Below the pieces are notes generated by a model. It saw nothing but the letters and a program-made list of their open reading frames with translations. It was not told where the DNA came from and did not search any database. A program made the translations under genes and the position numbers. Shown here in pieces: positions 3,726 through 31,047 of a DNA stretch of 32,000 nt (position 1 is its first letter; every line of letters starts with the position of its first letter). The DNA lies in contig NZ_CP064923.1 of NCBI RefSeq assembly GCF_018336915.1, forward strand, positions 4,500,001 to 4,532,000, given 5' to 3'. Origin of the DNA: Acaryochloris marina S15. GTDB taxonomy: Bacteria; Cyanobacteriota; Cyanobacteriia; Thermosynechococcales; Thermosynechococcaceae.

Positions 3726-4604
3726 TTATTCGTTTACAAAATCCTGCAATCTAAAATAGGCTTCGATATAGACAGGGTTTAACTGCATTGCTTGCTCTAA
3801 GGCCACACTAGCCTCTTGATACTCTCCAAATTCAAAATGGGTAACCGCCAATCCCAGAAAGCTCTCGGCATGCCGAATATTCAGTTGAGTGGCTTGCTCA
3901 AAGGCCGTCATCGCTTCTTCTTGAAACCCAATTTGAAACTGGGCTAGGCCCAAACCATAATAGGCGGCATGCAAGTAAGCATTATAGTGAATGGCTTTTT
4001 GATAAGCTAGGGCAGCCTCATCATAGTTTTGAATACGATAAAGAGCACTTGCCAGATTGCAATAGAGTTCAGCATTCTCCGGTGCATAATCCAAGGCTTG
4101 GCTATAAACAACCACCGCTTCGACAAAATCCCGAAATTGATACAAAACACTTCCCAGACCGTTGTGGGCTGCAGCTAAAGTGGGCTGCTTGTGAATCGCC
4201 TGCTTAAAATTATCCTTCGCCCCCATATAGTCTGCTTGCTCATACTTATGCAGCCCTCGCCGCAGCCAAACCACCGCCCAAGAGGTTTCATCCATCTCTT
4301 CCGAATTGAGGGTCGGCTGGCTCGTTACGGTCGGTTGCACCAGGGTCAATCCCTCTAAAGGGTCTGGCGGAAACGGAGATTCAGGCTGTTCAGACCTTTG
4401 ATAGCCAGCTGGCTCCTGATCCTGCTGCTGTGGATTGTCCTGGACTTCCACTTCAGATCCAGAATTAACCAGATCTTCTTCAATTTCATTAGCAAGATTT
4501 AGCCCGCGTTTAATCAACGAAGACATTTGATCATCAACACGGGCATGAAGAGATGGAAGATTGAACTTGCCCTGCTCGGACTGTTCCTTGGGCCCCTCCA
4601 CCAT
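3726..4604 (-). CDS. Tetratricopeptide (TPR) repeat protein
   Basis: The C-terminal two thirds consists of consecutive 34-aa TPR-like units (e.g. AELYCNLASALYRIQNYDEAALAYQKAIHYNAY). The N-terminus is acidic and Pro/Gln-rich. It starts 5 nt after the J-domain gene stop. Confidence 0.8.
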   Translation of the reverse strand: MVEGPKEQSEQGKFNLPSLHARVDDQMSSLIKRGLNLANEIEEDLVNSGSEVEVQDNPQQQDQEPAGYQRSEQPESPFPPDPLEGLTLVQPTVTSQPTLNSEEMDETSWAVVWLRRGLHKYEQADYMGAKDNFKQAIHKQPTLAAAHNGLGSVLYQFRDFVEAVVVYSQALDYAPENAELYCNLASALYRIQNYDEAALAYQKAIHYNAYLHAAYYGLGLAQFQIGFQEEAMTAFEQATQLNIRHAESFLGLAVTHFEFGEYQEASVALEQAMQLNPVYIEAYFRLQDFVNE

Positions 4605-8208: not shown

Positions 8209-8856
8209 TCAGGGCTCTAATGTATCTTTCAGAACTGTACGCGCTGCTAAATGATTGCGTGTAGACGTCAAAATCTCCGCTTCTCGCTCCAGCCGAGCCT
8301 GAGTGTCCTGCATTTCCAATAGAGATTGTTGCTCTAACGCCGCACCGTAAAAATTACTCGCCACCCAGTAGGAAAGATCTACAGGGAGACTTGGAATATC
8401 ATCTGGAAGGTTAATATCTTGTTCAGTTAGCTTTGCAGAAAGCCTAACAACATCTTGCAACAGCTGTGTGACACTTGTGGTTAAAGCTTGCAAGTCTTGA
8501 TCCTGCAGAGGTTGATCGTCGATCCACTCGACTAATCCAACACGGTAAGGCTTTTCGCGAACATAATGAAGTACCTTAAATCGCTGTTTCCCCAGCGTTA
8601 GGATCATAATTCGATCATCAGGCAGTCTTTCATGCTTTGTGATTTCAGCACAACACCCTACTAAAGCCGCTTCACCTTTGTTAGGGTCCCACATCAAAAC
8701 ACCAAATTGTCGATCCTCTTCCAAAATAGTGTTCATCATTATCCGGTAGCGATATTCGAAAATATGCAACGGTAATGGCCGCCCTGGGAACAGAACTACA
8801 TCAGGAAGAGGGAATAGGGGCAGCTCACGTACAGCAATTGAAGAGGGAATAGCCAT
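8209..8856 (-). CDS. LON substrate-binding (N-terminal) domain protein
   Basis: LPLFPLPDVVLFPGRPLPLHIFEYRYRIM is the Lon N-domain signature. No AAA+ or protease domain. ATG at 8856. Confidence 0.8.
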   Translation of the reverse strand: MAIPSSIAVRELPLFPLPDVVLFPGRPLPLHIFEYRYRIMMNTILEEDRQFGVLMWDPNKGEAALVGCCAEITKHERLPDDRIMILTLGKQRFKVLHYVREKPYRVGLVEWIDDQPLQDQDLQALTTSVTQLLQDVVRLSAKLTEQDINLPDDIPSLPVDLSYWVASNFYGAALEQQSLLEMQDTQARLEREAEILTSTRNHLAARTVLKDTLEP

Positions 8857-25962: not shown

Positions 25963-26485
25963 AACCAGTAATTCCCAGCGATAAGTCGAGGCCAGTATAG
26001 CAGACCTATCCAGGAATTGAAGGGGATTGATGATTAGCCCATCACATCAACGAATAGTCATCAATTCCAAAATTGTGGAATATCTATTGATCCTGATATC
26101 AGGATCAGCTAAAGATCTGACTTTTGAATAGGCTGAAACCTATTATTTGTCCATAAGAACATCTCGAAGAAAAGCCATGCTTGAACTGGGTAGATTTACC
26201 AGGGTTTTCAGCATCCCACTATTTCCTCCATAAGCTTCCAGACTCGACTGGACAATACTCATGCTCAAGTTTCATTGCTCCATTTCATCGGAGGATTACA
26301 ACTATCAAGTAATAAGCCCTTTCATTTAAATTAGGTGCAATATCTCCAACTCTGGTCGATCTGGGAGTCCGGACGTCTCAGGATACAAGGCTATGGGGTG
26401 CTATATGACTTTAGGGAATCAACCTTTAGCCAACGGGAAACCAGTTCAGCTCTATCACGCGTAGCAGTCACCGACCAGTCCTAAC

Positions 26486-27624: not shown

Positions 27625-28002
27625 ATGCAATGCCCACTATGCGGTCATTCCAAAGCACACAAGCATGGCAAGATGCCCAACATGCTTCAACGATACCGTT
27701 GTCCTGAGTGCCAGCAGACCTTTACTGAACGCTTTGATACCCTTTACTATCGTCGTCAGGTGAGTCCAGAGCAGGTCCGACAAGTTCTCCAAGCCCATGC
27801 AGAAGGGAGTAGTCTTCGAGGTATCACTCGGACCAGTGGCCTGGCTTACAACACTGTAGTCTCTCTAGTAAGAGCTGCTAGCCAACGATCTCAGCAACTC
27901 CATAATGGCCAAGTGCAAGCCGTTGAAACGGAGGATGTCAGTGCAGATGAAATGTGGTCCTTTGTGAAAAAAAGCAAAAACACTGTCTTCCCCATGAGCT
28001 AG
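27625..28002 (+). CDS. insA: IS1-family InsA-like protein (zinc finger + HTH)
   Basis: CPLCGHSKAHKHGKMPNMLQRYRCPECQQTF (CxxC...CxxC) followed by an HTH-like SSLRGITRTSGLAYNTVVSLVR. Confidence 0.85.
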   Translation: MQCPLCGHSKAHKHGKMPNMLQRYRCPECQQTFTERFDTLYYRRQVSPEQVRQVLQAHAEGSSLRGITRTSGLAYNTVVSLVRAASQRSQQLHNGQVQAVETEDVSADEMWSFVKKSKNTVFPMS

Positions 28003-28454
28003 AGATGGGTGATTGTTGGATGGCGATTACCTTGGCAAACACAAGCGGCGTGATCCTCTCGTGTCGTGTGGGCAAGCACACCGATTCATTATTGAATGAA
28101 CTGGTGACTAGCACTGAAGGTAAGACCGATTGCAAGGACTGGAATAGCGACGATTGGGGGGGGTACGAAAGAGTGTTGCCTTGGGAGATTGACCATTACA
28201 TTGGCAAGGACAGAACTCAACGACTCGAACGCACCAATGGCATTATTCGGCAGCACAGTGGTCGATGGCATCGACGCCAGAACAAATTTGGCAAAGTGTG
28301 GGCGCAAACCAAAGTCACTGCTCGATTAGTGGTCAGCTATTTCAATTGGATTTGGACACACAGTCGGCTTAAAACAACGGCGGCACAACGTGCTGATCTA
28401 GCCTCGCGAACTTGGCATTGGGATGACATACTCACCTACCCCACAATTGTTTGA
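27954..28454 (+). CDS. insB: IS1-family transposase catalytic part (InsB'), expressed as InsAB' by -1 frameshift
   Basis: It lies in the -1 frame relative to insA. The A7 run at 27967-27973 falls within the 49-nt overlap. Reading through gives ...DEMWSFVKKKQKHCLPHE... The ORF lacks its own ATG/SD. Confidence 0.85.
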   Translation: MVLCEKKQKHCLPHELEMGDCWMAITLANTSGVILSCRVGKHTDSLLNELVTSTEGKTDCKDWNSDDWGGYERVLPWEIDHYIGKDRTQRLERTNGIIRQHSGRWHRRQNKFGKVWAQTKVTARLVVSYFNWIWTHSRLKTTAAQRADLASRTWHWDDILTYPTIV

Positions 28455-28526: not shown

Positions 28527-30344
28527 TTAGAAAGAGAACGTGGCTCTTACTAATCCCTGAATAATGTCATTGGGATTGCCGTTACTGACATTGAAAGGAT
28601 TGGTAATCAGCATGACAGTCGGTGTGATGGTAATGTTTTCGTTCACAGGGAACCGATAAAACGCTTCAAAGTTAGTTTGAGCGGAATAATTAGGATCCGT
28701 AGTGCTGACAATAAACGGCTGACCAGCTGCTACCGCAAGCATAGACCCCGGCACTAGCAAGTCATTCACACCAACACCTGCCATCCAAGTTTGGATGCTG
28801 CTGTTGTTGCCAACGGGAAGAACATTCTGGAATAAATCATTGTTAACCCCACCAAAAGCGAGTTGAGGGTCAATGGAAATTCCATAGCGGCCAAAAATGC
28901 CGAATTGTCCCAGGGTCAACTCAACGTTGGCACCAATGATATTTTGGTTCACGTTATAGGTTTCAGCATGGGTAAACTGAGCCCGAACCGCAAAATTATT
29001 TTGGTCATCTTCACCAAAGTCATTGGTATATTCAATCTCTGCTGAAGCTTGAAAGGGATCCCCAAACAAACCACCCTCACAGGTATTGAGAGGATCTGCA
29101 CAGGAATTTACGGCAGTACCAGACGCAATTCCAGCATCTGCTGCAATAAATAGACCCCGAACGCTAATAGGACCACCGTTGACATTCCAATCAAACGCAG
29201 CACCTGCACCACCAGGACCGTCAACCGCTTCAGAGATGATCAGAGGGTTATTAATGAAGAAGCCAGAACTGAAATCAGCCGCTTCATCATTGGCGTAACT
29301 GTTGCCATCAATAAAGGCACTAGGATAAATCAAGGGACCGACGGTTACAGCTAGGTTCTCGACGGGCTTGAAGGTATATCCCAAGTTATACAAGGTAACA
29401 CCAGGGCCAGAACCGGTATAGTCCACCACACCAGGATCGCCTAAAGTCGTGGCTGTTCCTGCACCAACAACGGGAGGAACAGGGAAGAAATTAGCGGGAC
29501 CCGCCACACCTGCAGATGAGAAGAAATCAGAACCACCGTTGCCAGTTTCCAATGTCAAATCTAGGACATCATCTCCATTGAAGCTGGTAAGGAACGACAT
29601 TCGTACCCGAGAAATTGCACTCACCCGAGAATCTCCTGGATCAACGTTAGCAATACCAGGTGCCCCCGTATCAACAGCGGCCACACCTGTTGCCGCAGCA
29701 TTCGGGGTGGGAATATTATCCCCAGGGTTATTCAAGAAATCCCCAAACTGGGCCGCCATCACGACTTGAGCTTGAAGTTTAGTCGTGGTTGAGAACTGTT
29801 GCGATTCTACGGTGGCAACACGAGCTTCTAGACCATCAACGCGACCACGCAAGGTTGCTAGTTCAGCCGCAAATTCATCCTGAAGAGCCTTGAGAGCATC
29901 TAAGTCTTCTTTGGTAGCAAATCGATTGCTGAGATTATCCAAACAAGCATTCACCAAAGCAGCAGCTTCCCGACGAGACATGGCCCGGCTGGGGCGGAAC
30001 GTACCGTTTGGGTAACCCGCAACGCAACCATAGCGCTCTACCAAAGATTGGATGGCTTGGAAAGCCCAGTCATCAGGCTGCACATCTGAGAGTTGAGAGA
30101 CCGATGTGACCTGACCGACAGAATCGGCTTCCGTTTCAGACATGAGATCGGAAACAGCTGGCGTATTATCGGCTAAGACTAAAGGCTGTTGCGGACTTTC
30201 TTGAGAAATGGCGGGAGCTTGCTCTAGGGATTCATCAGAAATCTCTGAGCTTTCCAAGGATAAAGTACTAGCACTGGCCATACCCGTGACCATTAGTGCA
30301 CTGGATAAGCCAATCACACTAGCTAGCAAACGAAAATACTTCAT
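28527..30344 (-). CDS. Outer-membrane porin with N-terminal SLH domain (cyanobacterial OprB/Som-type, iron-uptake porin class)
   Basis: Signal peptide MKYFRLLASVIGLSSALMVTGMASA. SLH domain (VQPDDWAFQAIQSLVERYGCVAGYPNGTFRPSRAMSRREAAALV). Coiled-coil linker, then a Gly/Asn/aromatic-rich beta-barrel ending in RATFSF. ATG at 30344 is preceded by GAGGA. Confidence 0.88.
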   Translation of the reverse strand: MKYFRLLASVIGLSSALMVTGMASASTLSLESSEISDESLEQAPAISQESPQQPLVLADNTPAVSDLMSETEADSVGQVTSVSQLSDVQPDDWAFQAIQSLVERYGCVAGYPNGTFRPSRAMSRREAAALVNACLDNLSNRFATKEDLDALKALQDEFAAELATLRGRVDGLEARVATVESQQFSTTTKLQAQVVMAAQFGDFLNNPGDNIPTPNAAATGVAAVDTGAPGIANVDPGDSRVSAISRVRMSFLTSFNGDDVLDLTLETGNGGSDFFSSAGVAGPANFFPVPPVVGAGTATTLGDPGVVDYTGSGPGVTLYNLGYTFKPVENLAVTVGPLIYPSAFIDGNSYANDEAADFSSGFFINNPLIISEAVDGPGGAGAAFDWNVNGGPISVRGLFIAADAGIASGTAVNSCADPLNTCEGGLFGDPFQASAEIEYTNDFGEDDQNNFAVRAQFTHAETYNVNQNIIGANVELTLGQFGIFGRYGISIDPQLAFGGVNNDLFQNVLPVGNNSSIQTWMAGVGVNDLLVPGSMLAVAAGQPFIVSTTDPNYSAQTNFEAFYRFPVNENITITPTVMLITNPFNVSNGNPNDIIQGLVRATFSF

Positions 30345-30420
30345 ATTAATCCTCACACACTATTTTTGTTGGAATTAGAGTGGGGGATCCTAATGTTGAT
30401 AGGACGCCACTACAAACCTA

Positions 30421-30439
30421 GATAATGATAATCATTATC
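30421..30439. promoter_or_regulatory. Fur box (19/19 match to GATAATGATAATCATTATC)
   Basis: Exact consensus, embedded in a perfect 13-1-13 palindrome at 30417-30443. It lies 77-95 nt upstream of the porin ATG. Confidence 0.8.
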
Positions 30440-30453
30440 TAGGTTTTCTTCAA
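30425..30453 (-). promoter_or_regulatory. Candidate porin promoter
   Basis: Minus strand reads TTGAAG (30453-30448), 17 bp, TATCAT (30430-25). The spacer and -10 are covered by the Fur box. Confidence 0.5.
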
Positions 30454-30489
30454 TAGAGAAGAAACTTAAATGAACTCACCAATCTTCTG

Positions 30490-31047
30490 TTAGAAGTGCT
30501 GTTGAAGAATGTTGGTGATGTTTTTGGGCTTTACTTTGGTGTAGCGAGCCTTGTCAGGTAAAACAACAAGGTTAGGTCCGGCTTTACATTTACCGATACA
30601 GCCCATAGGTTGCAGTTGAATCTCTTTGTCTTGGCCTGAGGCTTGCAAAGCTGAATTCAATGCTGTTAAAACTTGTTGACTGCCGCGTTTACGACAGCTC
30701 GATTTTTGGCAAATTCTAATTTTGCCCTTTTGAACGTTACCAACAAGCTCAGAAGGCTGTTGAGAAGATGAAGGTGAGGAGTTGGGGAGGGCAGGCATGA
30801 TAGTCTTTGCCTTGAGTTTTATCTTGCCTGTTTTGATATTGATTTTTTGGCAACCCTGCACTTGAATCCATGCTCCGGGTTGCAAAATCCCAGAGCAGGC
30901 TGGGCGCAGAGACTTGGCTAGCTTAATATCTTGCTCTCCTTGGGAGGTAGCCAGACGAATCCCTTTGACACTACAGCCCTTTGACAAGATATAAGTTAAA
31001 AATCGACCACTCAGGGTGAATTCTGACTTTTTTGTATGTTTACCCAT
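30490..31047 (-). CDS. Thioredoxin-like [2Fe-2S] ferredoxin domain protein with an unassigned N-terminal domain
   Basis: The C-terminal ~75 aa carry C-x4-C (ICQKSSCRKRG) and C-x3-C (GCIGKCKAGPNLVV), as in NuoE/thioredoxin-like 2Fe-2S ferredoxins. The N-terminal ~100 aa are Lys-rich with no motif I recognise. Confidence 0.7.
   Translation of the reverse strand: MGKHTKKSEFTLSGRFLTYILSKGCSVKGIRLATSQGEQDIKLAKSLRPACSGILQPGAWIQVQGCQKINIKTGKIKLKAKTIMPALPNSSPSSSQQPSELVGNVQKGKIRICQKSSCRKRGSQQVLTALNSALQASGQDKEIQLQPMGCIGKCKAGPNLVVLPDKARYTKVKPKNITNILQQHF

Follow-up and report, generated by a model that had tools for sequence, protein, structure and literature searches.

A conserved Fur-family palindrome upstream of an SLH/OprB porin gene in Acaryochloris marina S15 is a candidate zinc-responsive (Zur) operator

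The porin gene and the palindrome upstream of it

The DNA analysed here, which we refer to as the window, is a stretch of 32,000 nucleotides from Acaryochloris marina S15 (contig NZ_CP064923.1, positions 4,500,001 to 4,532,000). Towards its right end it contains a porin gene on the minus strand (Table 1). The encoded protein combines an SLH domain (PF00395, residues 86-128) with an OprB beta-barrel (PF04966, residues 145-605), as identified with Pfam, and it scores 258 bits against the NCBIfam model NF033921 (por_somb, 'iron uptake porin'), for which the cut-off is 100; the SLH/OprB class given to the gene in a preliminary description of this DNA is therefore correct. The name 'iron uptake porin' applies to the NCBIfam family as a whole and is no evidence on this particular gene. 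The porin is preceded, in the same orientation, by dpsA, which the window end truncates, by a gene for an Asr1405/Asl0597-family protein and by one for a thioredoxin-like [2Fe-2S] ferredoxin. The remaining part of the window consists of chromosomal housekeeping genes, including rbcL, the str operon, murB/C, obg and the ccs genes. Directly downstream of the porin (27625-28454) lies an IS1-family transposase represented by two overlapping InsA/InsB-like ORFs, and since the otherwise identical sister contigs L001-L006 do not have the transposase, this insertion is recent and strain-specific.

The intergenic region between the ferredoxin and porin genes contains a 19-bp box, GATAATGATAATCATTATC, which in direct comparison agrees with the classical Fur-box consensus at 19/19 positions, as had been noted before. 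When the whole window was scanned at up to 3 mismatches to this consensus, the box (read on both strands) provided the sole matches, compared to 0.02 matches per window expected by chance from 100 dinucleotide shuffles. The second-best site in the window, at position 8725, has 4 mismatches, lies inside an ORF and is probably a chance occurrence. The box forms the centre of a larger palindrome, which the preliminary description gave as 13-1-13; the symmetry is perfect as claimed, and its extent is greater, the described segment being nested in a perfect 16-1-16 palindrome of 33 bp with the sequence AAACCTAGATAATGAT-A-ATCATTATCTAGGTTT. Two further perfect palindromes occur in the window, namely GGAGAGGTAGGTTAACCTACCTCTCC (26 bp, positions 15-40) and TGATCCTGATATCAGGATCA (20 bp, positions 26088-26107).

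The 19-bp box is located 77-95 nt upstream of the porin ATG, exactly where it had been placed. A minus-strand TTGAAG-17 nt-TATCAT arrangement (30453 to 30425) agrees with the promoter consensus at 9/12 positions and is the best and only sigma-70-like match there, and the box covers its -10 hexamer and most of the spacer. The earlier claim that the box lies over a sigma70-like promoter holds for the motif and for the overlap; the promoter match itself is no commoner than chance, with 1.1 such matches expected in the region, and the promoter is accordingly referred to as predicted.

Table 1. Positions in the window of the porin gene, the gene upstream of it and the sequence elements between them
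Feature	Coordinates	Strand	Remarks
SLH/OprB porin gene (por_somb family), 605 aa	28527..30344	-	ATG at 30344
GTGTGTGAGGAT at the porin RBS, complementary to the Yfr1 sRNA loop ACUCCUCACAC	30349..30360	-	invariant in 8/8 orthologues
Full perfect palindrome in this strain, 33 bp	30414..30446		16-1-16
27-bp unit (13-1-13), outer positions ±11-13 covarying among orthologues	30417..30443		24/30 pairs, P = 4e-5
Zur-type 7-1-7 site A, AGATAATGATAATCA	30420..30434		2 mismatches to TGATAATNATTATCA; Zur matrix 18.7 bits, Fur-type 3.0 bits
19-bp core, 9-1-9 palindrome, identical to the classical Fur-box consensus	30421..30439		0 mismatches
Predicted -10 hexamer TATCAT, within the box	30425..30430	-	consensus match only; implied start near 30418
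Zur-type 7-1-7 site B, TGATAATCATTATCT	30426..30440		1 mismatch to TGATAATNATTATCA; Zur matrix 21.7 bits, Fur-type 7.6 bits
Small conserved hairpin TTTCTTC-N6-GAAGAAA, between the ferredoxin stop and the box, overlapping the predicted -35	30445..30464	-	not scored as a terminator
Predicted -35 hexamer TTGAAG	30448..30453	-	promoter scanner; TTGAAG, GTGAAG or CGGAG in orthologues (partly conserved)
Thioredoxin-like [2Fe-2S] ferredoxin gene, upstream of the porin	30490..31047	-	stop codon 44 nt before the palindrome

Conservation of the box and covariation of its flanks

The locus is conserved in related genomes. In A. marina MBIC11017 the orthologue is 94% identical (NC_009925.1, at ~1.80 Mb), and the gene order Dps, Asr1405-family protein, ferredoxin, porin is kept in every orthologous contig. 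All 12 orthologous porin promoters examined have the box at -90 to -104 from the start codon, in several cases in its perfect form and in others with 1-4 mismatches. The box was absent from ~70 paralogous or other porin loci, including Acaryochloris paralogues that are 60% identical. Judged from this pattern of conservation, the box is the phylogenetic footprint of what we take to be a functional operator.

A related arrangement is found in the sister genus. A porin gene of Altericista sp. CCNU0014 has a degenerate double box, GAGAATTAAAATCATTATC (L025, 2773-2795), ~125 nt upstream of a GTG start, together with the same GTGTGAGGAT ribosome-binding site as in the Acaryochloris porin, and follows a different upstream gene. 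Because the Altericista porin carries it as well, the combination of the box with the RBS motif predates the genus Acaryochloris. The RBS motif is of interest in its own right. The small RNA Yfr1 has a conserved loop, ACUCCUCACAC, and porin mRNAs are known Yfr1 targets. Among the loci retrieved, 19 porin genes have GTGTGAGGA at their RBS, compared to ~2 occurrences expected by chance per strand, which suggests that post-transcriptional control by Yfr1 acts on top of the putative operator.

Scanning metagenomes for the box core in combination with the RBS motif yielded four loci on marine contigs (L102, L112, L119 and L121), in which a palindrome with a AATGATTATCATT core is located 75-81 nt upstream of a GTGTGAGGA RBS. 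The genes downstream start with MKLFQRLL..., which is typical of the Som porins of marine picocyanobacteria, and porin homology was confirmed for L119 and L121. Since these four Som-porin-like loci carry one too, the presence of a Fur-family box (along with a Yfr1 site) on porin genes is widespread. The boxes at the four marine loci are intermediate between the Zur and Fur types discussed below, and the neighbourhood of L121 holds housekeeping genes only and provided no clue to the metal. The marine metagenomes also contain a conserved non-coding family (L100, L101, L106, L107, L109, L110, L114, L115 and L120) in which arrays of TTGAGAAT/ATTATCA boxes precede GTGTGAGGA(A/T)...CCATGTGAG by 62 nt. 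This family may represent a Yfr2-like sRNA promoter, the motif of such an sRNA being nearly complementary to that of Yfr1.

The flanks of the core evolve in a different manner. Among 10 orthologues (the window, L007, L008, L010, L023, L026 and L095-L098), 24 of the 30 base pairs at positions ±11-13 are complementary, compared to 9.9 expected from cross-sequence pairing (permutation P = 4e-5), although the flanks themselves vary: the pairs seen are CCTA/TAGG, GCTA/TAGC, ATCA/TGAT, TAGA/TCTA and TTAA/TTAA. The effect stops at ±13, and no enrichment of pairing was detected at ±14-17 in the orthologues. Base-specific contacts with a protein are a poor account of the covariation at ±11-13 because such contacts would conserve the bases rather than make them covary. 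The options are a function as an RNA or DNA hairpin, template-switch correction seeded by the 19-bp core, and a symmetric shape read-out over a footprint of ~27 bp.

If the first of these options were the whole story, the palindrome would serve mainly as a nucleic-acid structure, that is, as an RNA hairpin acting as a terminator or stabiliser at the 3' end of the ferredoxin transcript, or as a DNA hairpin or cruciform. The persistence of pairing at ±11-13 is in line with such a role, and so are the folding of the sense RNA into a hairpin (z = -4.1 for the entire intergenic region) and the observation, made by eye, that the core mismatches in the orthologues are mostly of the G/T type on the sense strand. 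A search for intrinsic terminators between 30250 and 30650, however, found no terminator-like site; the stem is rich in A+T, and UUUGUAGUGG follows it with no U-tract, and for these reasons we rejected the palindrome as a terminator. Moreover, the 19-bp core is a specific protein-binding motif common to unrelated promoters, which structure alone would not need, and the template-switch correction of a quasi-palindrome could yield the covariation without any function. We therefore regard a mainly structural role as extremely improbable. An Rfam search of the window found no RNA families. A hairpin at 30379-30411 in the 5'UTR, which forms in the single-sequence fold, was discarded because RNAalifold gave no consensus structure for 12 orthologues, and the small hairpin adjacent to the box (30445-30464) shows G-U-compatible changes in L007 and L010.

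The type of the box and the identity of its regulator

The agreement with the classical Fur consensus had been interpreted as evidence of iron control. We compared the window with the boxes recognized by Fur-family regulators in cyanobacteria. The consensus site of Anabaena Zur (FurB) is a 7-1-7 palindrome, TGATAATNATTATCA; the Zur site of alr3242 is TGATAATCATTATCA, and the EMSA-validated operator of all3515 (zepA) is a double site consisting of TGATTATGATAATCA and TGATAATCATTATCG, in full TGATTATGATAATCATTATCG. The palindrome in the window contains two 7-1-7 sites, A and B in Table 1, which overlap at an offset of 6 bp and jointly read AGATAATGATAATCATTATCT. Its core, ATGATAATCATTATC, or the centre-base variant ATGATAATGATTATC, is held by all the zepA promoters that we inspected (from Leptolyngbya, Brasilonema, Microcystis, Nostoc and Chlorogloea). 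AAATAAATTCTCAATAAAT, the consensus of Anabaena FurA, shares the half-site ATTCTCA with the iron-type box of Acaryochloris, TGAGAATNATTCTCA, to which the window sites have at least 3 mismatches. When the two 15-mers were scored as log-odds with a Zur matrix built solely from sites in other genera and with a Fur-type matrix built from sites on the Acaryochloris plasmid pREB1, the Zur matrix was ahead by 14-16 bits. Judged by sequence type, the box in the window is thus best described as a pair of cyanobacterial Zur (FurB) 7-1-7 boxes that overlap, and the classical Fur consensus is a poor guide to the regulator in cyanobacteria.

The plasmids of Acaryochloris allow a comparison within the organism. 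A BLAST search of the box against 72,556 plasmids detected few perfect copies, three of them on Acaryochloris plasmids. These perfect 19-mers, on pREB2, pREC1 and pREC2, are located at the promoter of a folE paralogue, and the clusters of zinc-enzyme paralogues around them encode ThrS without the editing domain, CysS, MetH, dihydroorotase (pyrC), DacB and M23 metallopeptidases, with another box 81 nt upstream of cysS. Published Zur regulons include folE2 and thrS2 in Anabaena and folE2 in Synechococcus 7002. Since the box itself served as the query that led to the zinc loci, only their gene content constitutes independent evidence. A control that does not depend on the motif is provided by 125 kb of pREB1, a region chosen because the literature places a siderophore cluster and a TonB receptor there. 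This segment contains no Zur-type box (0.6 expected) and 6 boxes of the type TGAGAATNATTCTCA (0.5 expected), located at the starts of siderophore operons, at an AraC gene and at a fur paralogue.

These comparisons alter the earlier description in two respects. Of the proposed Fur operator on the porin promoter, the operator-like palindrome of the Fur family stands (12/12 orthologues, over the predicted -10 and spacer), and the assignment to Fur and iron is not supported, given that the box type is that of cyanobacterial Zur, that the siderophore promoters of Acaryochloris carry TGAGAATNATTCTCA and that the matrices favour Zur. The suggestion that the box probably ranks with the genome's strongest Fur sites is misdirected because equally perfect boxes are found at the promoters of the folE paralogues. 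On the other hand, a genuine Fur (FurA) operator, at which Fe-Fur would repress the porin and iron starvation would induce it as in the por_somb porins of Synechocystis, has several observations in its favour. The classical consensus is matched in full, the Fur motif of Synechocystis resembles the Fur boxes of other bacteria, Fur-regulated por_somb porins with Fur boxes are documented (Sll1550 and D082_28000), and the porin has Dps and a 2Fe-2S ferredoxin among its neighbours. A further copy of the box, on pREB6, has a FurA-like gene on one side and an oxidoreductase/FeoB-like operon on the other. In the PDB comparison the FurA-like protein is matched best by a Fur and does not match 7ne9, a cyanobacterial Zur structure. 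The context of the pREB6 copy could be read as iron control. We still consider FurA control of the porin unlikely, in view of the use of TGAGAATNATTCTCA at the siderophore promoters and the absence of the window box type from the 125 kb around them, the scores of just 3.0 and 7.6 bits on the Fur-type matrix, the identical perfect boxes at the clusters of zinc paralogues, and the binding of this sequence type by Zur in Anabaena. A paper on low-iron RNA-seq in Acaryochloris does not mention porins.

Hybrid sites exist, such as the cysS box TGATAATCATTCTCA and the boxes with GAGAAT in the orthologues L095, L098 and L011, and consequently the T/G discriminator between the Zur and Fur types is not absolute. 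Fur paralogues in Anabaena are reported to cross-bind promoters, and Anabaena furA carries putative Zur sites, which suggests cross-regulation. The pREB6 box is part of a metal island (L088, 61392-75409) in which 14 kb hold four paralogues of the Fur family. One is FurA-like, another PerR-like and a third a short Fur-like protein, and the fourth, beside zigA, is a Zur of the proteobacterial type. The island also includes the FeoB-like operon, a metG paralogue and three boxes of the type AATGATAATGATAATCATT. When compared to the NCBIfam models, none of the Fur paralogues reaches the cut-off, and the PDB comparison is more informative. Two other plasmid features did not contribute: the hypothetical gene divergent from folE on pREB2 has no domains and looks cytoplasmic, and a copy of the box on a Gloeothece plasmid adjoins a transposase.

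With so many paralogues, the protein that binds the porin box could be another member of the family, either FurC/PerR or a plasmid-borne one, or several of these proteins could bind it, in which case the porin would respond to peroxide, redox state or several metals. Such a response would have a parallel in Anabaena, where FurC (PerR) binds the promoter of the OprB porin gene all4499 in EMSA and furC overexpression lowers porins, and cross-regulation of the kind suggested by the putative Zur sites at furA would be compatible with it. Against this, the identical boxes lie among zinc genes, which favours Zur. Moreover, the window box has 3 mismatches to TTATAATNATTATAA, the PerR box of the Bacillus type. 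Altogether, binding by such a paralogue is very doubtful.

The same locus may carry a second kind of metalloregulator site. Neither dpsA nor the ferredoxin gene has a box of the porin type upstream. The dpsA gene has other conserved elements, ATTGAAAnnnnATTGCAATAG and TTGA(T/A)A-N-T(T/G)CAAT, which are present in L096, L097 and L098 and in L001 (~4150-4270, past the right end of the window). These elements are unlike the porin box and more reminiscent of the Fur-type boxes on pREB1, and for that reason the porin and dpsA might be under two different metalloregulators.

The proposed zinc operator and its relation to known systems

From the observed sequence of the box, its conservation at a fixed position, the occurrence of boxes of its type at zinc genes and the different boxes at the iron promoters of the organism, we infer that the box is probably an operator at which zinc-loaded Zur (FurB) represses the porin promoter and from which repression is relieved under zinc limitation. 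Zur is preferred to Fur because the comparison of zinc and iron promoters within the organism points to zinc. The two overlapping Zur boxes would cover the -10 hexamer and the spacer of the predicted porin promoter. With sufficient zinc, Zn-loaded Zur dimers would occupy the site, exclude RNA polymerase and block initiation at the predicted start. When zinc is scarce, apo-Zur would leave the site and the SLH/OprB porin would be made, presumably raising the permeability of the outer membrane for zinc, the proposed substrate, and thereby feeding uptake across the inner membrane. Against the Zur reading stand the iron-flavoured neighbours (Dps and the 2Fe-2S ferredoxin), the pREB6 context and the hybrid sites. 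A survey published in 2021 found none of the porins under Zur control in Anabaena; the prediction of a Zur-controlled porin is new and also unprecedented.

A more far-reaching version of the proposal is that the porin is a dedicated zinc-starvation channel and the first Zur-controlled SLH/OprB porin in cyanobacteria, and that the 27-bp palindrome at the same time serves as a Zur operator and as a selected hairpin, acting at the 3' end of the ferredoxin RNA or in DNA. Such a dual role would explain why the flanks covary instead of being conserved. We consider the full combination quite unlikely.

Knowledge of how zinc passes the outer membrane of cyanobacteria is incomplete; TonB-dependent transporters and ZepA are among the known Zur targets. 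A conserved, near-ideal operator of the Zur type on a porin promoter constitutes a testable candidate for a zinc-starvation porin. [quoted passage not shown]

The closest parallel is the operator of all3515 (zepA) in Anabaena PCC 7120, which likewise consists of two overlapping 7-1-7 sites at a 6-bp offset and is identical to the window site at 18/21 positions. Both sites overlap -10 boxes (predicted in the window), and in both cases the repressed target is an envelope or exported component of zinc acquisition (as proposed for the window). The window differs in that the target is an SLH/OprB porin and in that the palindrome is perfect and its flanks covary. Synechocystis Sll1550 and D082_28000 of PCC 6714 belong to the same porin family and combine a Fur-family box at the promoter with derepression on metal starvation, as is proposed for the window. 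The boxes of the Synechocystis porins were derived from iron-responsive promoters, whereas the window box is of the type found at zinc genes and unlike the boxes of the Acaryochloris iron promoters. The Fur box of E. coli, GATAATGATAATCATTATC, is identical to the window at 19/19 positions, but the cyanobacterial user of this type is Zur and the FurA sites differ, for example AAATAAATTCTCAATAAAT; identity to the consensus of another phylum does not transfer the regulator or the metal. At Anabaena all4499 a Fur paralogue, FurC (PerR), acts on the promoter of an OprB-family porin; the paralogue and the signal differ from those proposed here, and the box there is undefined. Finally, the Zur-regulated, TonB-dependent alr3242 and alr4028-4029 of Anabaena resemble the window porin in being outer-membrane uptake components behind boxes of the type TGATAATNATTATCA, the difference being that they are energised transporters whereas the gene in the window encodes a passive porin.
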